A stretch of 35,149 nt of DNA from a bacterium (lineage in GTDB: Bacteria; Babelota; Babeliae; Babelales; Vermiphilaceae), in the NCBI GenBank assembly GCA_021827875.1, contig JAKAUA010000006.1, positions 1 through 35,149 on the forward strand, in the 5' to 3' direction. A model generated the notes under the pieces. The model was not told the origin of the DNA. It made no database searches and saw nothing but the letters and a program-made list of their open reading frames with translations. Positions 11,261 to 32,130 of the stretch are shown here, in pieces (the stretch's first letter is position 1; every line of letters starts with the position of its first letter). The position numbers were made by a program, and so were the translations under genes.

Positions 11261-11962
11261 CTATTTTTTCTCAAAAATAGTGATGCCAAAGAAGCGCAGT
11301 ATAAGTGGAATACATGCAATTAATGCGAGCGCTACGAATGCTAGGATAATTTTTAATGAAAATATATCATGAGCAGAATTGAGATTCTGTAATTGGCTTC
11401 CCGCAAATGCAAATACTACTATACCGGGAACAAGACCTAAAAAAGTTGTCCATGCAAACGTCCAGGTTGAAATAGTGGTTAATCCCGCCACAATATTTAA
11501 TAAAAAAAGCGGAACTATGGTAACAAAGTGAATGAAAACTAAAAATTGTGCGCCATAATGTGCCACTGCCCGATTAAAGGCGCTCAGATAATGGCCATAC
11601 TTTTGTTGAAAAAAAGCTCCAATAAAATAGCGCACACTCCAAAATGCCAAAACAGATCCTGCTGTCGAAGCAAGCGTACTGAACAGGGCGCCAGACAACG
11701 TGCCAAAAAGAAATCCACCCGCTACCGCGAATAAAAAAGCTGCCGGCATAGAAGTAGCAACCGCTACAGCATAAATAGCCATAAAGATGCATAGAGAAAT
11801 CAAGTAATGGCGTTCAACATACAACTGTAAATAAGCGCTATGCTGTTTTAATTCCTCAAATGACAAAAAAGTAAACAATCCTGATGCATGTAACACAATA
11901 ATACCCGCGATAACGAGCACACCAATTAAGAGGCGCTTTGTTAGTTTATTCATCATACTCAC
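11261..11962 (-). CDS. TVP38/TMEM64 (DedA-related, 'SNARE-associated') family membrane protein
   Basis: 233 aa multi-pass membrane protein. Family-typical core MPAAFLFAVAGGFLFGTLSGALFSTLASTAGSVLAFWSVRYF and later IVPLFLLNIVAGLTTIS. Tandem paralog of the next gene. Confidence 0.7.
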   Translation of the reverse strand: MSMMNKLTKRLLIGVLVIAGIIVLHASGLFTFLSFEELKQHSAYLQLYVERHYLISLCIFMAIYAVAVATSMPAAFLFAVAGGFLFGTLSGALFSTLASTAGSVLAFWSVRYFIGAFFQQKYGHYLSAFNRAVAHYGAQFLVFIHFVTIVPLFLLNIVAGLTTISTWTFAWTTFLGLVPGIVVFAFAGSQLQNLNSAHDIFSLKIILAFVALALIACIPLILRFFGITIFEKK

Positions 11963-11972
11963 CGTTTGCTTC

Positions 11973-12659
11973 TTAGATATGATAATATTTTTTTATGCGT
12001 TTTATTGCCACAGGAATAAGAGATAACAATGCTAAAATAAGCAACATGCCAATTGTTTGCCATGACAATAAATCATGCATTGACTTTATAGAACCCAATC
12101 TACTTCCCGCCGCAACATACACAATCAGAAAGGGCAATGTTCCTAATGCAGTTGTCCATATCATAGTTTTTAGCGGAAGATCTGCCAAAATTGCCACCGA
12201 ATTGATCACAAAAAAAGGAACGATTCCTAAAAATTGTAGCATGAGTAGATAGCTTGCACCGCCTTTTTTGAGCTCATGCTCAAATTTAGCAAATTTGGTT
12301 TTATACTTTTCTTTAATGAGGTTATAAAAAAATGATCTATAAATAAGAAAGGAGGTAATTGCACCAAGAACTGCGCCTACTTCACTATAAATAACGCCAT
12401 ACACCGTTCCAAATAAATAGCCGGCTACCAGAGCAAATAGCGGTACCAATGGCAACCCGAACAGTAAAACGACAATGAGTGCTAAAACATAAGCAGCAAC
12501 GCCGCCAACATAGTGACGTGATACAAAATCTTTGAACATGCCGCTATGCATTTGAAACATTTCTAGTGATACATATTTGGCTATGAAAAAGCGATATGTG
12601 CAATATATTGCCGCTATGACAACCACACACCAGAGTAGTTTTTTTATACCGGAATTCAT
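11973..12659 (-). CDS. TVP38/TMEM64 (DedA-related) family membrane protein, tandem paralog
   Basis: 228 aa with the same architecture: LPLVPLFALVAGYLFGTVYGVIYSEVGAVLGAITSFLIYRSF and IVPFFVINSVAILADLP. Confidence 0.7.
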   Translation of the reverse strand: MNSGIKKLLWCVVVIAAIYCTYRFFIAKYVSLEMFQMHSGMFKDFVSRHYVGGVAAYVLALIVVLLFGLPLVPLFALVAGYLFGTVYGVIYSEVGAVLGAITSFLIYRSFFYNLIKEKYKTKFAKFEHELKKGGASYLLMLQFLGIVPFFVINSVAILADLPLKTMIWTTALGTLPFLIVYVAAGSRLGSIKSMHDLLSWQTIGMLLILALLSLIPVAIKRIKKYYHI

Positions 12660-22348: not shown

Positions 22349-22422
22349 TGGAGGCGGCACCCGGATTTGAACCGGGGATCAGGGTTTTGCAGACCCTTGC
22401 CTTACCCCTTGGCTATGCCGCC
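22349..22422 (-). tRNA. tRNA-Cys (anticodon GCA), CCA encoded
   Basis: Hand-folded cloverleaf: acceptor GGCGGCA/UGCCGCC, anticodon arm AGGGU-CUGCAAA-ACCCU, T arm CCCGG-UUCAAAU-CCGGG, then U-CCA. Confidence 0.95.
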
Positions 22423-22445
22423 TTACCAACTCTAAAAAAGATAGA

Positions 22446-22928
22446 TTACTTGTTGAGTAATCCTGCTTTTTCCATTTTTTCTTTTAATTGCTCTGCAGTG
22501 ATTAATGGTACGGTAACTTCACCATTGTGATGCTTATTTTCAGCTTTCAAATATGGTCTTTGGCATACTCCCTCTACCGGAAATTTCTTTTGTGCCCAAT
22601 CAGCCATACCGGCTTCATAAGCCCATACATGCTTAAAGCCTTTTGAAATTAAATCGCCGGCAACTTGACCACTTGCACTGCACATATAATTACTGCAATA
22701 GATTACCAGTTCTGTATCTTTATTCAACTGAGCAGTAAAAGAATTTACCTTTTCAAAAGGGACACTTATTGATCCCTTAATGTGACAATCATCGTAAAAT
22801 GGCTTATCAAGTACGTTGATCACATACAAAGAAGCTTCAGCTTGTTTACCACCAAAAAGATCTTTTAGAAAACAGCCCGGTAATACAACAATCAAACTTG
22901 CCATGAGCAATAGTATATTTTTATTCAC
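22446..22928 (-). CDS. rhodanese-domain (sulfurtransferase-like) lipoprotein
   Basis: 160 aa. Signal plus lipobox-like LPGC. Single rhodanese fold pattern (HIKGSISVPF...ELVIYCSNYMCSASGQVAGDLISKGFKHVWAYEAGMADW) with a candidate catalytic Cys in the IYC loop. Confidence 0.6.
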   Translation of the reverse strand: MNKNILLLMASLIVVLPGCFLKDLFGGKQAEASLYVINVLDKPFYDDCHIKGSISVPFEKVNSFTAQLNKDTELVIYCSNYMCSASGQVAGDLISKGFKHVWAYEAGMADWAQKKFPVEGVCQRPYLKAENKHHNGEVTVPLITAEQLKEKMEKAGLLNK

Positions 22929-23039
22929 TCTTATTCCTTTTACTTTTTAAAAAAGTATTTTAAATGTAACAAAATCTCTATATTCCGCAATAAAATAGTA
23001 CATTGTTTTTAACATCGTAACAGGAGATATTTTCATTGA

Positions 23040-23957
23040 TCAACTAATAAATTGTAAGCAGCGATTTTTGCGTATGCGATTAAAGAAATCGACGGGATGT
23101 CTCAAAATATCAAAAATCCACCAATCATATTCACTATCTACCGATAATATTCTAAATATAATTCTGCCGTGAATGAGATTGCCCTCCAATGGCCCAAAGA
23201 AGCGAGAATCTCTACTTCCTTCTCTGTTATCACCCATTACCCAATATTGATTGGCGCCCAATTTTACAAAAAATTCATCCGTACAGTTCCAATGATTTAC
23301 GCCCTCACGATGTTCTTGATCATAACGTTCATCTCTGACCAGCGGTGTCCCCGGTTCCAACAATAATAAATCTTGTTTCTTTTCATCACGTAATAAACGA
23401 TTTTCTTTTAGTCGGTAAAAAGGTTGTTTATCAAAAGGAAGATCAGGATCATAACTATAAGGGCTAGAAGCCTGCTCAACATCTCCGGAGAATGTTTTTA
23501 AATCAAAATCTTCATTAAGGCTAATAACCAAAGGATATGTATTAACATAGGGTTCGGTTATTTGTTTGTTATTCACATATACGACCGGCTTGCCATCTTC
23601 AACTATGCCCCATACACTATCGCCGGGAATCCCGATCACGCGCTTGGTCCAGTTACTTGGCCCCCATACATAATTTTGAAATAAAGCCTTAATGCGAGAA
23701 GGAGAATAATTAAACAGAGGGTCATTAAATGAAATAATTTCGCCCCGTTGCGGCTTGCGAAAAAGATAGGTTGCTTTATCAGCAAAAAAACGCTCACCAA
23801 CAAGCATAGTCGTTTCCATAGAGCCGGTTGGTACCTGATAAATACCAAAACCAAAAGTTCTTACTAAAAAAACTACCACTATCAGAAAAACTATTTCGTA
23901 CCAGCCCGACTCTGTTAATTGTCCGCGTGGTTTAAGCGGTTGTTTTTGATTTGCCAT
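23040..23957 (-). CDS. lepB: signal peptidase I
   Basis: 305 aa with an N-terminal TM. Box B TGSMETTM, box D TKRVIGIPGD, box E GDNREGSRDSRFFG. Confidence 0.88.
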   Translation of the reverse strand: MANQKQPLKPRGQLTESGWYEIVFLIVVVFLVRTFGFGIYQVPTGSMETTMLVGERFFADKATYLFRKPQRGEIISFNDPLFNYSPSRIKALFQNYVWGPSNWTKRVIGIPGDSVWGIVEDGKPVVYVNNKQITEPYVNTYPLVISLNEDFDLKTFSGDVEQASSPYSYDPDLPFDKQPFYRLKENRLLRDEKKQDLLLLEPGTPLVRDERYDQEHREGVNHWNCTDEFFVKLGANQYWVMGDNREGSRDSRFFGPLEGNLIHGRIIFRILSVDSEYDWWIFDILRHPVDFFNRIRKNRCLQFIS

Positions 23958-24547
23958 GATATATCTTCCCTTTTTATCTCTTCATGTATATATGTAGGAT
24001 GCATCTTAGATATATAGGCTACTAATTTTTCAAACAGGCGAACAACAGATCGTTCTTTTGTTGGCAATGTAGCGATGCCAAAATCAAACCATTCTAATGC
24101 TTTTGATTCATTGTTTTGCACAATAGTTTCATCGCTCATCACGTGCAACAAAAAGCGTATGTCATAATGATAATGCTCTGGCTCTTTTTTATTGGCTGGG
24201 ATCAGATGAATATCTACATCAAAAATTTCAACATTCAATGGCTCAATCGCCATAATACCCGATTCTTCTTGTGCTTCTTTTATAGCGACCTGCATTACAT
24301 CATGCTCACCATCGCAATGTCCGCCAAGCTGCACCCATAAATTAAGCTTGGCATGGTGCATAAGCAGCGCTTTGGTATGATCTTTATTCAAGAGCATTGC
24401 CGATGCAGTGATGTGCCCAATCTGCAATGAGCGCTCAAAACAGTCAGGGTTTGCATGTATGAAGTCAATAATGCTACTTTTGTATGCGACTTCTTCAGTT
24501 TTCGGTGTATAGCGATCAAGTAGTTGCAAAAGCATATTTCTTTTCAT
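23915..24547 (-). CDS. NUDIX hydrolase
   Basis: 210 aa with Nudix box GHCDGEHDVMQVAIKEAQEESGI (K replaces the consensus R). The 3' end overlaps the lepB start by 43 nt. Confidence 0.8.
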   Translation of the reverse strand: MKRNMLLQLLDRYTPKTEEVAYKSSIIDFIHANPDCFERSLQIGHITASAMLLNKDHTKALLMHHAKLNLWVQLGGHCDGEHDVMQVAIKEAQEESGIMAIEPLNVEIFDVDIHLIPANKKEPEHYHYDIRFLLHVMSDETIVQNNESKALEWFDFGIATLPTKERSVVRLFEKLVAYISKMHPTYIHEEIKREDISWQIKNNRLNHADN

Positions 24548-24565
24548 TACAAATTTCTATGCATG

Positions 24566-25588
24566 TTAACGCACAAACTGCAAGCAACGACTCCAGCGGA
24601 TGCGTTTTATAAAATCGATTGGATGGAGCAATAAATGGAAAATCATCCACGAATAGCCACTATCAACCGAGAAAATTCTGAAAACCATTTTGCCATGAAT
24701 TAATGAGCCATTAATAGGACCAAAGGCGCGGCAATCATAGCTGCCCTCACGGTTGTCCCCCATACCCCAATATTGATTTGGTCCGAGTTCGATATAAAAT
24801 TCGTCATAGGATTTGTCGCTACGAGTCCAATAATTTTTTCCTTTTTCACATTCTTTGTGTCTTGGCAATGGTGTACCGGGCCAACGTAACTCTAATTTAC
24901 CTTTTGCATTACGTATAAGTAATTTTTCTTCTAAGTTATAGAATGGCTGTTTATTAAATGGCTTTGAAGGGTCATATGTTTTCCAGCGCATACTCTCTAG
25001 TGCCTGTCGTATTGCAAATTCAGAAGATTTATTCTGTAATTCATCAATAGTCAAATCTCCATTGCGCACATATTTAAAATTTTCTCTTTCAACTTCGCGT
25101 GCACGCTCTTTTGGATCAAGACCATAAACACCGACCAGTGGATATTGATTAAGATAAGGCTCATCTAGCTTTTTACCATTGAGATACACGGCTGTCTTGC
25201 CATCTTCTATTTTACCTTCAATTACATCGCCCGGAATTGCGATTAAACGCTTGGTCACATTGGTTGGCCCCCATACATAATTTTGCCACCAGCGCTTTAT
25301 CGGATTGGTAGAATATTTAAAAGTAACATCATTGAGTGAAATGATTTCGCCACGGCGCGGTGTGCGGAACCAATAAGTCAATTTATCTGCCACAAAGCTT
25401 TCACCAATAAGCATGGTGGTCTCTGCAGATCCACTTGGTACTTGATAGAGGCCAAAAATAAACGTTCTCACCGCAAAAATGATGAGAACCCACATGATCA
25501 GTTCGCTGATGCTATTATTGCTGAAAAATTTTCTATCAGTACCAAATATCTTTTTTAAAAATGATTTGTTGTGTTGATTTTCTATCAT
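24566..25588 (-). CDS. lepB: signal peptidase I, second paralog
   Basis: 340 aa. Box B SGSAETTM (Ala replaces the Met after the nucleophile Ser), box D TKRLIAIPGD, box E GDNREGSYDCRAFG. Long collinear identity with the 23040-23957 paralog. Confidence 0.85.
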   Translation of the reverse strand: MIENQHNKSFLKKIFGTDRKFFSNNSISELIMWVLIIFAVRTFIFGLYQVPSGSAETTMLIGESFVADKLTYWFRTPRRGEIISLNDVTFKYSTNPIKRWWQNYVWGPTNVTKRLIAIPGDVIEGKIEDGKTAVYLNGKKLDEPYLNQYPLVGVYGLDPKERAREVERENFKYVRNGDLTIDELQNKSSEFAIRQALESMRWKTYDPSKPFNKQPFYNLEEKLLIRNAKGKLELRWPGTPLPRHKECEKGKNYWTRSDKSYDEFYIELGPNQYWGMGDNREGSYDCRAFGPINGSLIHGKMVFRIFSVDSGYSWMIFHLLLHPIDFIKRIRWSRCLQFVR

Positions 25589-25628
25589 TGCAATCCAGTC
25601 CTTGCTAAATTTTATGTCTTAAGTCAAA

Positions 25629-25673
25629 TAATACATGGGATTTACTCGTTTGCCAAACTTATACACTTCAAAA
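25629..25673 (-). repeat. 45-bp direct repeat, copy 1: displaced 3'-end relic of an M23 peptidase gene
   Basis: Exact copy of 27768-27812. It reads FEVYKFGKRVNPMYY then L-T-stop in frame, but an in-frame TAA lies 8 codons upstream of FEV and there is no gene body. Confidence 0.9.
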
Positions 25674-25733
25674 AACGCAGGCACATATGCGCCCTTTTAT
25701 TATCCCGCCGTTTACCAATATGGGGTTCTCTGG

Positions 25734-26273
25734 CTAATTACAAAAACATTCTCCGTCATTAAGTGCCTTTGTTCTTCTATCTAACTCAACCATTCCGGCT
25801 GAAAACGCGAAAAGAAGCGCCGCCTCTTCGCATGCTTCCGGCCTACCTAAAGAATTTCGCTCAAGATCCTTTTTATGTGCTTTAAGACATTTAATAAATT
25901 CATCTTTTGCTGCTGCTGGCCGTGAAGCTTTTTCTTTTAGTAGAGCTCTAAGCTTTTCTTCGGTAGTTTGTAAAACGTAAGGCCTTGCTACTTTAACAGC
26001 CATTAATCCCAACCCGACTTTGGTTGCTATCGTTGTTGAAGCGATCGCAGTTGCGGTTTTAGCTGTCACCGCTGCGACTGTAGTACATACGACTATAATA
26101 GTACTCATTGGCATAACTACAGGCGCTACTATAATAGCTCCGGCGCCCACCGTAACATAAAACATAGTCGTCTCAAATGCCGATGATTCAGGCTCTCTAC
26201 AAGTACATTGTTCAGCTTCTGTCGCAGCTAATAAACTTACGCTGAGTATTAAAAGAAAAAATAATTTACGCAT
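25734..26273 (-). CDS. cassette protein A: secreted/membrane protein with conserved C-terminal two-Cys module
   Basis: 179 aa with a signal peptide and an Ala/Thr/Val-rich hydrophobic core. C-terminal TTEEK-x18-FIKC-x15-PEACEE module shared with 26276-26896 and 27240-27734. CTC near the N-terminus and CFC at the C-terminus. Confidence 0.6.
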   Translation of the reverse strand: MRKLFFLLILSVSLLAATEAEQCTCREPESSAFETTMFYVTVGAGAIIVAPVVMPMSTIIVVCTTVAAVTAKTATAIASTTIATKVGLGLMAVKVARPYVLQTTEEKLRALLKEKASRPAAAKDEFIKCLKAHKKDLERNSLGRPEACEEAALLFAFSAGMVELDRRTKALNDGECFCN

Positions 26274-26275
26274 AT

Positions 26276-26896
26276 TTATGTCCGACTATGGGCAAATTTA
26301 AAATTTTCACTCATTTCAATGAACGCATCTTTACTGCCTGCTATGATAAATAAGTTTGCCAGCTCTTCACATGCGGAAGGAAGTCCTGAACCATTCATCT
26401 GTCCTTTAATATTTTTTATAAGACAATCTCTGAAATTTCTTTTAGCTTCATAAAATTGAATTTTTTCGCGAGCTTCCTCTATCTTTGCGACCTTCTCTTC
26501 GCTTGGGTAAACATATGCATAAAAATCCTTACCCGCATTAACCAAGTCTTTAACCCCATAAAAGAAAATAACCGCACCTACAACAGGATAAAGTGCTTTA
26601 ACCGCATCAGCCCCTAATTCTTTTGATGCCTTTGCAACATTGTCAGATGTTATTTTTGCTAACTCGACAGCTCCATCAGTCGTAATTTTTGTTGCTTCAA
26701 TCCCAGTATCAGAAAATATTTGTGCTGCTTTTACTATTTCTTGCGTGGCATCAGATCCAACTGTCTTTGCTGCTTCTTTTAAACCCTCAGATAAGGCTTC
26801 AGCTGCTACTTTACCGATATTATCTCCGATGCATAAAATATCGAACATTGAGAAAATTGATATGGAGAGTAGTGCAATGTTTTTAATATTTTTCAT
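26276..26896 (-). CDS. cassette protein B: paralog with conserved C-terminal two-Cys module
   Basis: 206 aa with a hydrophobic N-terminus, an amphipathic Ala/Lys/Glu-rich helical region and one TM (LYPVVGAVIFFYGV). C-terminal PSEEK-x19-FRDC-x14-PSACEE module. Confidence 0.6.
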   Translation of the reverse strand: MKNIKNIALLSISIFSMFDILCIGDNIGKVAAEALSEGLKEAAKTVGSDATQEIVKAAQIFSDTGIEATKITTDGAVELAKITSDNVAKASKELGADAVKALYPVVGAVIFFYGVKDLVNAGKDFYAYVYPSEEKVAKIEEAREKIQFYEAKRNFRDCLIKNIKGQMNGSGLPSACEELANLFIIAGSKDAFIEMSENFKFAHSRT

Positions 26897-26932
26897 AATC
26901 TTGTTAGCCTATTTATCACTAAAAATTAAACA

Positions 26933-27250
26933 CTATTCCGTTAATCCTGCACGTATTTGTGATATGCCAAATACAATAATTGCCAATATTATTAATGGCT
27001 TCAGTTCATTCAAGGCACCCAAACCAAACTCTCTAGCAGCCTTTACATCAGCCTCTGCTTTTATTTTTGCTGCTTCAATTTGTTTTTGTCTGATTATTTT
27101 TGCTGCTTCAATTTGTTTTTGTCCAATTACTTTAGCTGTCTTAACAATAAGGGAGTCATTTGGGTCTTCTTTGAGAGTTGACTCATCAAATGCAGGTCTA
27201 TTGCATGCAATCAAGCATAGTGCACTTAATAGTATATATTTATATTTCAT
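26933..27250 (-). CDS. cassette protein C: small lipoprotein with internal 11-aa tandem repeat and C-terminal TM
   Basis: Starts at MKYKYILLSALCLIAC (lipobox LIAC). The upstream extension in the ORF track is unlikely. Repeat GQKQIEAAKII/RQKQIEAAKIK and C-terminal LKPLIILAIIVFGI. The ATG overlaps the stop region of protein D by 11 nt. Confidence 0.55.
   Translation of the reverse strand: MKYKYILLSALCLIACNRPAFDESTLKEDPNDSLIVKTAKVIGQKQIEAAKIIRQKQIEAAKIKAEADVKAAREFGLGALNELKPLIILAIIVFGISQIRAGLTE
27061..27126. repeat. 33-bp tandem repeat x2 inside the lipoprotein gene
   Basis: TTATTTTTGCTGCTTCAATTTGTTTTTGTCTGA followed by TTATTTTTGCTGCTTCAATTTGTTTTTGTCCAA. The first 30 nt are identical. Confidence 0.9.
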
Positions 27251-27734
27251 GATGATTCCTTCCGTTATTTCTATATTGATTATAAATAGCATTAACTCTA
27301 TCTACCTCATTTTTGCCGCCTAACAGTATAAGCATGCTTGCTATTTCTTCACAAATTTCCGGTTGACCGGCTTCAGTTCTTTGAGAACTGTTCCGATTTT
27401 GAACCATACACTTCTGAAATTCATTCTCGGCAGTAATTAAAATATATTTTTCAACAATTTCTTGTGCGTGAGCCTTTTCTTCTACTGTTGGAAAATTGTG
27501 CTTTCTTATTTCTTCGCATAAAGAATAAGATTGAAGAACAATGCTGACATAAGGACTAGCAGCTGATAATCCTTCCAATGTCTTGCCTACCATTTCCTCA
27601 ATACCAGCCGAAGCTGTTTTAGTGGCTATTTCTTCCATTGCACATGTCTTCAAGAAGCCGAACACGCAAACAACTAAAATCGAATAAAAAACTGTCTTAT
27701 ATAACACAATATTCATTGTTAAATTTTGCTCCAT
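27240..27734 (-). CDS. cassette protein D: paralog with conserved C-terminal two-Cys module
   Basis: 164 aa with an N-terminal TM/signal (FYSILVVCVFGFLKTCA). C-terminal PTVEEK-x18-FQKC-x15-PEICEE module. The start may instead be the ATG 6 codons downstream. Confidence 0.6.
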   Translation of the reverse strand: MEQNLTMNIVLYKTVFYSILVVCVFGFLKTCAMEEIATKTASAGIEEMVGKTLEGLSAASPYVSIVLQSYSLCEEIRKHNFPTVEEKAHAQEIVEKYILITAENEFQKCMVQNRNSSQRTEAGQPEICEEIASMLILLGGKNEVDRVNAIYNQYRNNGRNHHEI

Positions 27735-27757
27735 TAATTAAGATTTTTAGAACTGAT

Positions 27758-28684
27758 TCACGCTAAGTAATACATGGGATTTACTCGTTTGCCAAACTTA
27801 TACACTTCAAAATGGAGATGTGAAGGATCTCCTTTGCGATGGGTGCTGCGCACTATGCCGGTATCACCCACGCGCCCAATTACTTCGCCTTGGCGCACCT
27901 TTTGGCCAACTTTTACTAAAATATCATTCAGATGAGCGTAGCGCGTTTTGTACTTATTGTTATGTAATATTACAATCGTTTTGCCAAATCCCGAGCCGTA
28001 ATGTGCTTCTATCACCATGCCCGCGTGTGCCGCTTTTACGCTCGTTCCCTTTAATGCGGCCATATCTACGCCATGATGAAATTTCCACGTCCCATTGGGC
28101 TGTTTGCGCGGGCCAAAAAATGAGCTTAACCAAAATTGCGCATTTTCTATTGGCCATGCGAGCGCAATATCCCGCTTGCCGTCAATCATTGGTGATTTTA
28201 ATTTAGTGACTTGGTGACTTGTTATACGCCGCTTACCCGGTTTATTGCTACGCACGGTATTGGTAGCATGTTCTAACAACTGCTCATGATAATCACGCCA
28301 ATCAGCGGCATTGAATGCTACTTCTTGAGCGCCAAAAAAATCTATCATTGATTGTTTTAAATAGAGCTTATCTCTATTTACGATAGTGAAAGATTCTTTT
28401 TGCTCATCCGTTATTTTTTTTTTTTCATTGCTCTGCTGATCGTTTTGAGCTTGTTCTTGTAATTGATTGTAATCATCAACTATTTTTTTTACCGCTACAA
28501 TATAGCCACGGTACTCTTCTTGTAGCTCCAGCAACCGCCCTGCCTGATATTTAAAATAAAAATATTCATAGCAGAGTAATGATCCTGTCACACCAACGAG
28601 CAGAGAAAAAGCAATCATGCCGGCAATAATATAATGCGTATATAGTTTTTTAATGTTGTTTTCCATGCACGTCCACATACTCAA
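27758..28684 (-). CDS. M23 (LytM-domain) peptidase with N-terminal TM and coiled coil
   Basis: 308 aa. TM IIAGMIAFSLLVGVTGSLL, coiled coil, HHGVDMAA (HxxxD) and SHLHFEV (HxH) zinc-ligand motifs. The start lies 5 nt after the batE stop. Confidence 0.88.
   Translation of the reverse strand: MSMWTCMENNIKKLYTHYIIAGMIAFSLLVGVTGSLLCYEYFYFKYQAGRLLELQEEYRGYIVAVKKIVDDYNQLQEQAQNDQQSNEKKKITDEQKESFTIVNRDKLYLKQSMIDFFGAQEVAFNAADWRDYHEQLLEHATNTVRSNKPGKRRITSHQVTKLKSPMIDGKRDIALAWPIENAQFWLSSFFGPRKQPNGTWKFHHGVDMAALKGTSVKAAHAGMVIEAHYGSGFGKTIVILHNNKYKTRYAHLNDILVKVGQKVRQGEVIGRVGDTGIVRSTHRKGDPSHLHFEVYKFGKRVNPMYYLA
27768..27812 (-). repeat. 45-bp direct repeat, copy 2: last 15 codons of the M23 peptidase gene
   Basis: TAATACATGGGATTTACTCGTTTGCCAAACTTATACACTTCAAAA, identical to 25629-25673 and 2139 bp away in direct orientation. 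Confidence 0.9.
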
Positions 28685-28689
28685 AACTG

Positions 28690-29394
28690 TTATAACTCTA
28701 GAATATTTTCTTGAGCTATCCAGCCTTTTAGCTGTTTATTTTTTATTTTTACCCATTGCTCACGCCGCTCTACTACTTTTACCTCTGTGCCTTTTTCTAG
28801 TGCTCCTACTTGCTGATAATCATTACGGGGCCCAATAAAAACCGGTGCCTGATCATGAATAACAAGAGCACGCTGTTGCCGCATCACATAATATTTACCT
28901 GCAACAGCGAGTGCCGACAAACCAACACAGCCAATTAGCACGATCAATGCTATTGTTCTTCTTTGTCGGTACCAATATGCCGCGCGCCAAAAAAGTATAC
29001 ACCAAAAAAATAAAAAGATGAGTTGTACTACTAATGGCTGCCATCCATCAATAAGGCGCCACGCTCGCCTATTAAAGGTAAGAGTTTTATTCAGTTTCTG
29101 CTCTACCGTTGCAATGTTAGCCATTGCCATTTTGTATTGCGCGGTTGAACATGATTGAGCTGCTTTGCACCAATATGCGTAGGCATTATAATAATCATGC
29201 AGCATATAAAAAGAGTTACCCATGTTGTACCACACTGCATTATTCTTTTTGTTAATGCGTTGATAACTAGATAAGGCATCTGCATATTTTTCTTGATTGT
29301 ATAGCTGATTGCCGCGTAAAAAAATTTCTTCATCAGAATCAGCAAAAGCTAAAGAAACACCGAATAAAAAAAATATCATAGAGAGTTTTTTCAT
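28690..29394 (-). CDS. batE: BatE-like TPR + SH3b domain protein
   Basis: Start taken at MKKLSMIFFLFGVSLAFA (signal), which removes the overlap with batD. TPR-like NQLYNQEKYADALSSYQ...WYNMGNSFYMLHDYYNAYAYW, one TM, and a C-terminal SH3b-like GTEVKVVERREQWVKIKNKQLKGWIAQENI. Last gene of the bat order. Confidence 0.7.
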   Translation of the reverse strand: MKKLSMIFFLFGVSLAFADSDEEIFLRGNQLYNQEKYADALSSYQRINKKNNAVWYNMGNSFYMLHDYYNAYAYWCKAAQSCSTAQYKMAMANIATVEQKLNKTLTFNRRAWRLIDGWQPLVVQLIFLFFWCILFWRAAYWYRQRRTIALIVLIGCVGLSALAVAGKYYVMRQQRALVIHDQAPVFIGPRNDYQQVGALEKGTEVKVVERREQWVKIKNKQLKGWIAQENILEL

Positions 29395-29396
29395 GA

Positions 29397-31124
29397 TCAT
29401 GCCTTCTTTCTGATGAAAAAGAGCCATTGCTTTGCCTGTTGATATAGTTGGTCAATATCTACTGTATAGGCTGAAAAATAATTAGCTTGATTTAGCTTAT
29501 TAAAAAAGTCCCGCCATTCTACAAGCTCTTGCTCTGTTGCACGTTGCGCCATCCAGCGATCAACATCCTCTCCTGTCACCTGTGAAATATGCTTATTCAA
29601 GAGATGTGCAAACACAGAAAGAAAAATAAAATGCCAATCATAGGGTATGCGATATGATTTGATCAATTGCGAATGCGCAAACCCAAACATCATGCGGCGC
29701 TTAACGCCAGGTAGCCATTTGCCAAGTGCATTTGTAAACAATTTTGCATTATTTTTTAATATAAATAGAACCGGAAGCAAACATAAGACTATGAACAGTA
29801 ACCAAGGAATATGCGTGATCCGACCATAGGCACCATAAAAATGACGTATAAGCCCTTTGATCTCTGGACGGTGCTTTTCTTTCTCTGTCACGCCATAGTC
29901 TTGGGCGGAGGCTGATTCTATGTTATCTTCAGGTATTAAAGTTTCTTGTTGACGCTCTGATTTTAAAATAGTGAAAGGCACTGTTGCAGTTGCCATTTTC
30001 CTATACTTATACAAATCAACATCAAAATAGGTCAGCTGCTGCAGCGGTATTTCAAACTCACCTGTTTTGGTCGCCTGCACCACATATTCAAAAAACTGCT
30101 TTTTATCATGAGTATATTTTTTTGATTCGTATACTTTTATGCCATCGGGCATATTCTGCAAAGGGAACTGCTCTATATCAATATCACCATCGATTGCTAT
30201 GGTTAGCGTAGCACCTTCTCCCTCACGCATTACTGCCGGGTGCAAGCTTGCATTAATGTTTTTAATATGGCCAATACCATCTACACGCTCTTGATAAGGA
30301 GGCAAAGGGTCTATCTTAATTGTTGCGGCATTTGAATAGATGGTTTTTGCTACACGCGCACCAAATAATGTTGAAAAAAAATCATAACGATCAGGCAACA
30401 CGGTATAATCAACACGATACGCAGGGATTATTATTTCACCCGTTTTGTTTGGATACAGCTCCCAACCCCATTCTATATAATCAGCAATAACGCCGTCTAT
30501 TTCTTCACGTCCGGTTATCGCATCTTTTTTATTTTTAATCACATAACCCTGATCTTTATGCTGTTCAGGCTCTGCAACAGTAAGAAATTCTACAGTAGGC
30601 TGTAATCGATAAAAACGTAAGGTAGCATATATTTTCTCACCAACTACCGCTTTACTACTACTTACCGATAAGCGTGCAATTGCCGCCTCGTCCTGCTGGG
30701 CTGATCGACGACGCTGCCCTTGCGCAACGGTTTGTTCTGCAACCTCTACCTCAATCGGATCAGATTCTTCAGCCCCTGCAGCACCGTGTACCACGGCAGG
30801 ACCAAAGGTATAGATGCCCGGTTTATCAATACGCGCTGCATATATATAGGTAGTGCGTGATGCTCCATTAAATGTCTCCATCCTAAAACCGGTGCGCTGC
30901 AACCTGCCTATGGGCGAAGCTATTTCCGGTGTACTAAAATCTTTTTGAGTCCCGTCAATAGTAACTTCTAAATTAAAAGGAACCCCAATACCAACTTTTT
31001 GCAACTTTTCACCGCGCATGCCACGCATACTCAATGTCACTTTGCCAAATGCGCCCATGTGCGCATTAAAAAGAATGAAGAATACTAGGCTTAATAAAAA
31101 TTTACCAACGCGGGGTATTACCAT
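29397..31124 (-). CDS. batD: BatD-like protein
   Basis: 575 aa with an N-terminal signal, a large extracytoplasmic beta-rich region, a single late TM (IPWLLFIVLCLLPVLFIL) and a cytoplasmic tail. Size, topology and position between batC and batE match BatD. Confidence 0.7.
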   Translation of the reverse strand: MVIPRVGKFLLSLVFFILFNAHMGAFGKVTLSMRGMRGEKLQKVGIGVPFNLEVTIDGTQKDFSTPEIASPIGRLQRTGFRMETFNGASRTTYIYAARIDKPGIYTFGPAVVHGAAGAEESDPIEVEVAEQTVAQGQRRRSAQQDEAAIARLSVSSSKAVVGEKIYATLRFYRLQPTVEFLTVAEPEQHKDQGYVIKNKKDAITGREEIDGVIADYIEWGWELYPNKTGEIIIPAYRVDYTVLPDRYDFFSTLFGARVAKTIYSNAATIKIDPLPPYQERVDGIGHIKNINASLHPAVMREGEGATLTIAIDGDIDIEQFPLQNMPDGIKVYESKKYTHDKKQFFEYVVQATKTGEFEIPLQQLTYFDVDLYKYRKMATATVPFTILKSERQQETLIPEDNIESASAQDYGVTEKEKHRPEIKGLIRHFYGAYGRITHIPWLLFIVLCLLPVLFILKNNAKLFTNALGKWLPGVKRRMMFGFAHSQLIKSYRIPYDWHFIFLSVFAHLLNKHISQVTGEDVDRWMAQRATEQELVEWRDFFNKLNQANYFSAYTVDIDQLYQQAKQWLFFIRKKA

Positions 31125-32130
31125 TTTTGCTCCTTTTTGGCTGCTGATTATCCATCATGATTTTTACTAGCTGCTTATTTAATTGCGCATCTTGTTTGTC
31201 TTGTTGCGCAACAATTTCTGCTAATGCAGCGTCTAGTGCTTGCAGGGATTTATTATTTTTTTGTTCTTGACCCGCACCACCAGCTTGCTTTTTCTCTTCT
31301 GCGCCCTGCTCCTGCTGTGCATTTTGTTGGGCATTATTTTGCTGATTACTTTGTGGAGATTGTTTTTGCCGATCATCTCTTCCTGGTTCTTGCTGCTTAT
31401 CTTGTTCACCAGCACCATTATTACGATCTTCTTGGCCATCTCTGTCTTTTGGATTATCTTGTCCTTCACTATCATTTTCTGATTGATCACCATTTTCGCC
31501 CTGCCGCTGATCATTTTGATCATTCTGTCCATCAGATTTTTGTTTTTCTGAAGAACCGTCTTGCTTTTGTTGTGAGTTAGAATTTTGATCTTTATTTTGA
31601 CCCGATCCCTGCTGCTGCTTCTGATCTTGCTGTTGCTGATTATTCTGATTATTTTTCTGTTGCTCTTCTTGTTTATTTTCTTCCTCTTTTTTCTTGAGGA
31701 GCTCTTCTACTATTTCTTTATTTTTCTTTGCACGCTCATTATCAGGATGTGCGCGTAGCAGATCTTCGTAAGTAGATAATGCTTCTTCTAATTTTTGTTG
31801 TTTGACATAACTATTGCCCAAATTGAATAATGCCTGCTCGTGCAATGATGCGTCTGATTGCGCACTCAATTCTGCGGCTTGCTTAAAATAAGTCGCCGCA
31901 TGCTCTGCGTCACCTTTTTTGTAGGCAAGCACACCCGCATCATACAAATGTGATGCTGAATCAGGCGTATCAGTCAATGCCGATGCTATCAGCCGTTCTG
32001 CCTGCGGCACATTACCCTTATGAGCTGCGGCTATCGCGCGATCATAAGAAAATAATGCAGTCATGCGCATATGCATAGACGCAAAAAGAAGTAAAACAAA
32101 TAGTACACTATTATTTTTTACAACAACCAT
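31102..32130 (-). CDS. batC: BatC-like TPR protein with long Q/N/D/E-rich tail
   Basis: 342 aa with an N-terminal hydrophobic segment. TPR units (HLYDAGVLAYKKGDAEHAATYFKQAAE, ALFNLGNSYVKQQKLEEALSTYEDLL). A low-complexity region of about 190 aa follows. Confidence 0.65.
   Translation of the reverse strand: MVVVKNNSVLFVLLLFASMHMRMTALFSYDRAIAAAHKGNVPQAERLIASALTDTPDSASHLYDAGVLAYKKGDAEHAATYFKQAAELSAQSDASLHEQALFNLGNSYVKQQKLEEALSTYEDLLRAHPDNERAKKNKEIVEELLKKKEEENKQEEQQKNNQNNQQQQDQKQQQGSGQNKDQNSNSQQKQDGSSEKQKSDGQNDQNDQRQGENGDQSENDSEGQDNPKDRDGQEDRNNGAGEQDKQQEPGRDDRQKQSPQSNQQNNAQQNAQQEQGAEEKKQAGGAGQEQKNNKSLQALDAALAEIVAQQDKQDAQLNKQLVKIMMDNQQPKRSKNGNTPRW

Follow-up and report, generated by a model that had tools for sequence, protein, structure and literature searches.

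A four-gene block between 45-bp direct repeats at the 3' end of an M23 peptidase gene in Dependentiae, a probable single-crossover insertion

How did a block of four small genes come to lie between an M23 family peptidase gene and the signal peptidase gene lepB2, which are immediate neighbors in related genomes, and what do the two identical sequences at its ends record? This question is raised by contig JAKAUA010000006.1 (NCBI GenBank assembly GCA_021827875.1), of which positions 1 to 35,149 of the forward strand were analyzed; this whole stretch of 35,149 nucleotides is referred to as the window. The Dependentiae, which parasitize protists from inside their cells, have not been cultured, and there is little information on how genes enter their genomes. 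A previous reading of the letters without database searches (the sequence-only reading) had proposed site-specific integration into the 3' end of the M23 gene, with a history of duplication and deletion as the alternative. We compared the locus with related lineages, public read assemblies and other loci carrying the same genes. The block is best described as an insertion, which probably entered by a single crossover within the end of the M23 gene. The features on which the argument turns are given below, with positions in the window.

27758..28678, minus strand: M23 family peptidase gene; translation from the ATG at 28678 gives 306 aa, and the open reading frame (ORF), which opens at a TTG at 28684, has 308 aa.
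27768..27812, minus strand: distal copy of the repeat (attL-like), encoding FEVYKFGKRVNPMYY of the working M23 gene, followed by L-A-stop.
27758..27767, minus strand: imported tail, C-TTA-GCG-TGA, which finishes M23 as ...Y-L-A-stop in codons unlike those of any orthologue.
25629..25673, minus strand: proximal copy of the repeat (attR-like), the displaced original end of the M23 gene, followed by L-T-stop.
25589..25628, minus strand: original M23 tail, T-TTG-ACT-TAA, then the ancestral spacer of 30 nt up to lepB2; relatives L001, L002 and L030 are colinear with it at their empty sites.
24566..25588, minus strand: lepB2, a signal peptidase I gene (Pfam Peptidase_S26), directly after M23 in all relatives.

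The repeat, TAATACATGGGATTTACTCGTTTGCCAAACTTATACACTTCAAAA, is exact over 45 bp and occurs twice in the same orientation, 2139 bp apart; with one mismatch allowed, its length is 48 nt. No third copy was found in the window at up to three mismatches, and none appeared in 100 shuffles. Read on the minus strand, both copies encode FEVYKFGKRVNPMYY. The distal copy is flanked by CACATCTCCA before the 45-mer and CTTAGCGTGA after it, and forms the last 15 codons of an intact M23 gene, whose ORF matches the Pfam Peptidase_M23 profile over positions 1 to 96 of 96 (E 1.2e-30) and whose 306-aa form is present in database records. The proximal copy, flanked by GTGCCTGCGTT before and TTTGACTTAA after, is located 40 bp upstream of lepB2 and has an in-frame TAA 8 codons upstream. 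Neither tblastn nor a DNA alignment (about 9 of 24 matches, close to random) detected M23 similarity upstream of the proximal 45-mer, and a longer M23 relic was rejected on these grounds. The sequence-only reading had described an exact repeat, a distal copy forming the M23 gene end, a proximal copy without a gene body and an abrupt end of similarity on the other side, and all four descriptions agree with these results. A known RNA or structured element in the repeat was rejected: Rfam finds only two tRNAs in the window and no family overlapping the repeat, which has no unusual stability (fold z-score 0.5). The 45-mer is not a dispersed repeat either, as a degenerate pattern of it gave a single match among 185,579 species genomes, an ordinary M23 gene end, and no match in the JGI metagenomes or IMG/VR.

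The sequence-only reading had named an assembly artefact as a result that would overturn it. The block with its flanking repeats was recovered in an independent read assembly at a word length (k) of 31, in which Logan contig L028 (run SRR13205815) is 2154 bp long and corresponds to window positions 27797..25644 at 100% identity. Its length is made up of the unique interior (2094 bp) and, at either end, exactly 30 nt (k-1) of a repeat copy. In Logan contigs, all 31-mers are distinct within an accession (PMC12424806). Because L028 stops 30 nt inside each copy, its ends mark a genuine repeat, longer than k, on either side of the block. The proteins of the block are also present in Logan and ENA assemblies.

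The orthologous region was taken from six related lineages (L001-L004, L005, L006/L007, L021, which is the closed 1.09-Mb metagenome-assembled genome (MAG) OY970172.1, and L030). The identity of M23 to the window is 82% in L001-L004, 68% in L005 and 64% in L006/L007, and that of lepB2 is 75% in L030. In all six Dependentiae lineages, M23 and lepB2 are 31-36 nt apart with nothing between them. A BLAST comparison of L001 with the window gave two colinear blocks (L001:1652-5136 to 31263..27743 and L001:5067-8366 to 25673..22349), and L021 is colinear in the same way. The lepB2-side alignments of both stop exactly at 25673, the boundary of the relic, and the M23-side alignments stop at 27743 to 27763; about 70 nt at the M23 end of the relatives align to both window copies. 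The window minus 2139 bp is therefore the arrangement of every relative, which answers the call of the sequence-only reading for an empty site at this junction. Because six lineages have an empty, colinear M23-lepB2 junction, the block is an insertion, one gain being far likelier than six independent precise losses.

Two further sets of contigs were encountered in this comparison. Contigs L014 and L015, with about 90% protein identity in M23, were considered as closer relatives and found unusable for the junction, as they are patchwork contigs with inverted lepB2 pieces. In L014:1-1662 and L015:1-1466, apparently from different datasets, M23 breaks off at ...NNKYKTR and continues into an internal stretch of lepB2 in inverted orientation, then into another lepB2 piece; the M23 fragment is 90% identical in protein sequence, the overlaps at the junctions measure 8-10 nt, and both contigs have this M23-lepB2 junction. 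It is probably a chimeric assembly. One of four contigs with identical M23 proteins, L003, has an extra 1.1-kb segment in the lepB2-NUDIX interval (L003:7590-8750; compare L001:6130-6165), with a GNAT-like ORF of 256 aa (Pfam Acetyltransf_1, E 3e-4). It is a second insertion into this operon, at the level of strains and of another kind, and was rejected as a further example of such a scar, since no direct repeats flank it and its family is unrelated.

Which of the two gene ends is the original one can be read from the sequences that follow the repeat. The relic continues as TAT TTG ACT TAA and the working gene as TAC TTA GCG TGA, so that both spell Y-L-x-stop in different codons, as the sequence-only reading had noticed. 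The M23 ends of all six empty-site lineages have the form TAT TT(G/A) xxx TA(A/G); in comparison with them, TAC, TTA and TGA are combined only in the working tail of the window. The L030 end reads TAT TTG GCA TAA, followed by GAATATAAAAATTTAGTAAGGA, and the spacer of the window reads GACATAAAATTTAGCAAGGA. Because the relic tail and its spacer match the ends of the relatives and the working tail differs from all of them, the relic is, by position and sequence, the native M23 end and the working tail an import. The last 19 codons of M23 are thus the repeat plus the imported tail, and the gene is intact. The chance of an in-frame Tyr-Leu-x-stop in random sequence of the same base composition is estimated at ~0.003. 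The conserved ending of the imported tail implies that a homologue of the M23 end arrived with the incoming DNA, and speaks against a target-site duplication.

The pattern of differences points in the same direction. Comparison of the window copies gives 0 differences in 45 positions and 7 in the following 12, against 4-10 in 45 and 3-8 in the next 12 for orthologous pairs of M23 ends. An identity block with diverged homology on one side and non-homology on the other fits recombination within the identity and not the gradual divergence of a duplicate. The insertion is recent: the copies are still identical over 45 bp, and one of them is now non-coding. These data also bear on the duplication-and-deletion history that the sequence-only reading had kept as its alternative, in which a tandem duplication of M23, in whole or in its 3' region, was followed by the arrival of the cassette between the copies and by deletion of the downstream copy to its last 57 nt. 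Such a history also gives a body-less gene-end relic. It requires at least three independent events, no relative examined has a tandem M23, and it explains neither the step from 0 of 45 to 7 of 12 differences nor the atypical tail on the working copy instead of the relic; we consider it extremely improbable.

Campbell-type integration, a single crossover with DNA carrying an M23-end look-alike, probably accounts for the locus. Foreign DNA of 2139 bp with a four-gene operon would have recombined once, reciprocally, with the chromosome: the closing codons of the resident M23 gene would have crossed over with a ~55-nt gene-end look-alike on the incoming, presumably circular DNA, at a point within the 45 identical bases. 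The circle would have been laid out as left arm, core, substitute tail and cargo, and the gene side as body, core and native tail. The product would then be the M23 body with the imported tail (...Y-L-A-TGA), 23 nt, genes A-B-C-D and a terminator-like hairpin, with the original end (...Y-L-T-TAA), the spacer and lepB2 displaced 2.1 kb downstream, the end as a relic. The insertion itself, the identity of the original copy, the foreign and mobile nature of the cargo module and the intact M23 gene are established by the comparisons made here; the circular intermediate, the enzyme and any present-day mobility of the block are our inference. As to the catalyst, we give an even chance to a site-specific integrase acting in trans or since lost, which would make the block a cargo-only remnant resembling a cis-mobilizable element (CIME). 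We lean to an integrase because element-borne substitute gene ends are a hallmark of integrase systems. Whichever catalyst acted, the perfect repeats could still allow precise loss of the block.

The cargo consists of four genes, all on the minus strand.

27240..27734, minus strand: gene A, 164 aa, with an N-terminal hydrophobic segment and a conserved C-terminal two-cysteine helical domain.
26933..27250, minus strand: gene B, 105 aa, with a lipoprotein-like signal LIAC (by eye), an internal 33-bp tandem repeat and a C-terminal hydrophobic segment.
26276..26896, minus strand: gene C, 206 aa, a paralogue of A and D.
25734..26273, minus strand: gene D, 179 aa, a paralogue with N-terminal CTC and C-terminal CFC motifs.

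The ORF coordinates bear out the tight packing reported earlier, with an 11-nt overlap, a 36-nt gap and a 2-nt gap. The C-termini of A, C and D share a domain of about 85 residues in which two cysteines are invariant; its consensus is P-T-x-EEK...F..C...N...G.P.ACE. Hydrophobic signal-like N-termini were recognized by eye in four of four proteins, which are accordingly predicted to be small exported or membrane proteins. None of the four matched Pfam or PHROGs. An AlphaFold model of A is all-helical, with a mean predicted local distance difference test score of 73 and about 90 in the conserved C-terminal domain, and a Foldseek search of this model against the PDB gave nothing at E<1. Gene D had no tblastn match in PLSDB plasmids or INPHARED phages, and an alignment of D-type proteins had none in IMG/VR. 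A word-indexed search returned only nine other family members; the full profile search returned 504 representative sequences at E<=0.001, 263 of them at <=1e-10. The cargo family is thus sizeable and uncharacterized. By its best M23 homologues, which bear the name Candidatus Dependentiae (TM6), the window is chromosomal DNA of such a bacterium; a protein of the cargo family is labeled Candidatus Babeliales. The 105-aa form of B is present in database records; its 33-bp tandem duplication (window 27061-27126) is in perfect register, is 94% identical and encodes a repeated (K)QIEAAKII, and homologues of B in L008 have 90-nt repeats of similar composition.

A profile search with the D-type alignment located the same genes elsewhere. 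The order A-B-C-(E)-D recurs in other Dependentiae contigs at unrelated sites, often preceded by a Gly-rich gene and a small membrane-protein gene, and D is the last gene of the module in every other genome that carries it. The module of L008 is downstream of atpA and tRNA-Arg, that of L013 starts 3.7 kb from a large serine recombinase with HTH_17 and AAA_25 genes between, those of L010 and L011 are near an Ntox35 toxin gene, and those of L016, L017 and L022-L025 are on short contigs. The GC content at third codon positions is 0.255 in the cassette versus 0.323 +/- 0.04 in 34 other window genes (Mann-Whitney p = 0.001). Because of this low value and the recurrence in unrelated contexts, the cargo is taken to be a foreign module, and it is a mobile one.

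Several of these loci have features of their own. L013:1-8567 has a full module (Gly-rich gene, A, a B-position ORF without detectable B similarity, C, E and D); its recombinase has Resolvase, Recombinase and Zn_ribbon_recom domains, and the attachment site lies off the contig end. The contig has the look of an integrative element with this cargo on board. In L010, L011 and L024, the module is preceded by the genes of a 1060-aa protein with a weak Ntox35 toxin-domain match (L010:404-3586) and, after it, of a TPR protein, and this neighborhood suggests a variable or accessory region. In L008:6201-7150, tRNA-Arg(TCT) is followed by frameshifted ORF fragments on the opposite strand, and the module starts 900 bp further on. 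These fragments resemble the coiled-coil C-terminal portion of large serine recombinases, and the segment L008:6280-6700 may be a decayed gene of this type; NCBIfam, the PDB sequences and the PLSDB plasmids gave no match to it. A partial tRNA-Arg copy in L008 was rejected, as its score was not above that of shuffles. Two copies of a 110-300-nt segment, ~75% identical by eye (L008:10931-11260 and 12133-12400), end in the start of a GIY-YIG-like ORF (MYYVYLIRS...) and flank a 222-aa ORF just downstream of the module.

A number of results weigh against the Campbell-type reading, in whole or in its integrase-driven form. No recombinase, integrase, excisionase, transposase or phage domain was found among the 38 ORFs of the 35-kb window, which extends the earlier observation of a recombinase-free interval from the cassette to its whole surroundings. 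Because A starts 23 nt after the imported stop and the T-tract of the hairpin after D meets the relic, a decayed recombinase gene would not fit into the block, and none has left a trace there. A separate attP-like copy of the 45-mer was found neither in the species genomes nor in the JGI metagenomes or IMG/VR. The module lies next to M23 or lepB2 at 0 of ~10 other loci, the window being the sole case found, and no long direct repeats surround it at the three loci scanned (L008, L011 and L013). The sole recombinase near a module, that of L013, is of the serine type, and serine recombinases neither need nor create 45-bp identities. At the left boundary, a T-run is common to the cassette terminator tail and M23 (GCGTT/TTTT versus CTCCA/TTTT), and this microhomology also fits an illegitimate or template-switch junction. 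At k=31, an integrated block gives the same graph as a free 2139-bp circle plus an empty site, so that the deposited 35-kb MAG contig, unbroken through both junctions, is the sole witness to the integrated state.

The last of these points could mean that the true state is an empty chromosomal site and a separate 2139-bp circle sharing the 45-mer, or a strain mixture, which the assembly joined. The ends of L028, each 30 nt into a repeat copy, overlap each other by 15 nt, as those of a circle could, and at any k<46 both states share one graph. An unbroken passage of the MAG contig through both junctions would need reads or k-mers longer than the repeat, if the assembler used k>45. A circle would moreover still carry the M23-end look-alike, effectively an attP, and the biological conclusion would be little changed. 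We regard an assembly artefact of this kind as very improbable.

The microhomology raises the possibility of an illegitimate insertion with a long target duplication, in which foreign DNA was captured, and 45 bp copied a second time, through a template switch during replication or during the mending of a staggered break, the Y-L-A-stop being a coincidence kept by selection for a working M23. The lack of a recombinase and of terminal inverted repeats agrees with this route as well. It has to accept the ~0.003 chance of the in-frame ending and a 45-bp duplication that far exceeds known target-site duplications, and a clean in-frame replacement of a gene end is not known from such events; it therefore appears improbable. 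Two conventional classes of element were also considered and rejected. Insertion sequences (IS) and transposons are marked by a transposase, terminal inverted repeats and a duplication of 2-15 bp. The block has no transposase and no terminal inverted repeats at its ends, its duplication is 45 bp, and the homology continues into the tail. Integron gene cassettes have an attC palindrome after each gene, an IntI integrase and an attI nearby. The window has no integrase and no structured element, and its four genes come with one repeat pair.

Host RecA could have performed the same Campbell-type crossover without a dedicated site or integrase, acting on a circularized fragment from a strain with the module downstream of its M23. 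Its share and that of the integrase both lie within the likelihood given to the Campbell-type reading. RecA-dependent exchange usually needs ~25-30 bp of identity, which the 45 bp here exceed, and identity bounded by mismatches is what recombination between diverged homologues selects. The occurrence is unique, neither the block nor the 35-kb window encodes a recombinase, and the window has only A-D, whereas the larger module elsewhere adds a Gly-rich and a small gene before A, so that the block looks like an arbitrary fragment. On the other hand, DNA from a related strain would be homologous on both sides and would normally replace the resident sequence by double crossover, with no duplication; none of the ~10 other module loci has the module natively beside M23; a single crossover on ~50 bp is rare; and recA is not among the window genes. 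On balance, RecA is an unlikely catalyst, to be kept in view. Of the original proposal of site-specific integration into a gene 3' end, the insertion, the rebuilt gene end and the displaced end are upheld by the empty sites and the two tails. Its site-specificity is not, given that there is no integrase and no second site, the module elsewhere is unflanked and RecA would give the same scar.

Two sequence features lie where the block meets the relic.

25669..25694, minus strand: terminator-like hairpin GGGCGCATATGTGCCT followed by GCGTTTTTTG, after gene D; a pattern match, such sites not being enriched over shuffles.
25628..25656, minus strand: promoter-like TTGGCA-17 nt-TATTAT within the relic, with 10 of 12 matches, 40 nt upstream of the lepB2 ATG.

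The hairpin occupies 25694-25679, and its T-run overlaps the first TTTT of the relic, which places the abrupt repeat boundary inside the T-run. The second promoter hexamer is TATTAT in the relic versus TATTAC in the M23-end copy. The promoter-like match overlaps conserved codons, and such matches are no commoner in the region than in shuffles. The M23-lepB2 spacer of the relatives is too short for a promoter. The displaced gene end, behind a terminator-like hairpin, may now drive lepB2. A far-reaching version of the Campbell-type reading would have an active, recombinase-less, cargo-only circle of 2.1 kb whose attachment site mimics the last 19 codons of M23, moved by an integrase encoded elsewhere and spreading small exported two-cysteine helical proteins (~500 representative sequences) among Dependentiae, with the displaced gene end doubling as a lepB2 promoter behind the cassette terminator. 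As a whole, this version seems to us quite doubtful.

The surroundings of the block are those of a housekeeping region. On the minus strand, the order is acyltransferase, two VWA-domain genes, TPR, BatD, TPR/SH3, M23, cassette, lepB2, NUDIX, lepB1, rhodanese, tRNA-Cys and tRNA-Leu. The remaining window encodes PGI, G6PD, 6PGD, Pth, PRPP synthetase, OmpH, ABC transporters, the Suf system, T2SSE and HU. At window 23040-25588, NUDIX is flanked by two signal peptidase I paralogues that are 51% identical, and the listed ORFs of NUDIX and lepB1 share 43 nt. L006/L007 lack NUDIX at this place and have their two lepB genes side by side, which means that NUDIX is also variable in the operon. Tandem-duplicate VTT/DedA-domain genes of 233 and 228 aa lie at window 11261-12659.

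The locus documents a clean gene-gain event, with both junctions and the empty site, in an under-studied phylum. It ties a family of exported proteins to horizontal movement, which makes the family a candidate for host-interaction functions, and it illustrates that cargo can sit in a conserved housekeeping operon (Bat genes, M23, lepB) without damage to the target gene. If reads across attB and attP junctions exist, the block would be a very small trans-mobilized element and a handle for finding its integrase.

Several known systems leave a scar of this kind. The prophage e14 of Escherichia coli K-12 is flanked by icd, which extends into the prophage, and by the C-terminal pseudogene icdC, and excision would rejoin the gene with its displaced end (PMC13626634). 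Like e14 (and phage 21) in icd, the block has the 3' end of a protein gene as its target, a substitute end and a body-less C-terminal relic; the end supplied by e14 likewise leaves icd intact, with mostly synonymous differences. Unlike e14, which is ~15 kb long with its own integrase and excisionase, the block has 2.1 kb, four cargo genes, no recombinase and a duplicated segment of ~57 nt. In the definition used by Islander, an island splits its target and restores it with sequence of its own, and its two ends are recognized by the regenerated target and the displaced fragment (PMC4383910); in islands in tRNA and transfer-messenger RNA (tmRNA) genes, an identity block of ~40 nt is typical (10.1101/2020.12.28.424599). 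The locus resembles these islands in its two ends, one a restored target and the other a displaced fragment, and it differs in that its target is a protein gene and no tyrosine integrase lies at the block end. Of the marks of a gene-3'-end island, we found direct repeats of the target segment, a restored M23 gene with a homologous, non-identical tail, and empty sites; an integrase inside the element was not found among the 38 ORFs.

CIMEs have lost their integration and transfer genes and kept attL and attR (PMC6323972). The block is like CIMEs and cargo-only islands, including tycheposon remnants, in that cargo lies between att-like repeats with no integration or transfer genes; none of the latter was found in the block, and its repeats would then have acted as attachment sites. 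In contrast to CIMEs, which are defined by a parent integrative and conjugative element or integrative and mobilizable element using the same attachment site, the block has no known parent or cognate integrase. With Campbell-type homologous integration, as of suicide plasmids, it shares the duplication of a common segment, the lack of a dedicated recombinase and reversibility via the repeats. The laboratory cases use hundreds of bases, whereas the identity in the window is 45 bp. We know of no documented natural event of this type in this phylum on 45 bp with a foreign operon as a circle. What a RecA-type exchange should leave is nonetheless present: 45 identical bp, with mismatches on one side and non-homology on the other. 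Altogether, the class of mechanism is textbook, and the locus stands out by the small size of the block, its lack of a recombinase, its host phylum and its cargo family.

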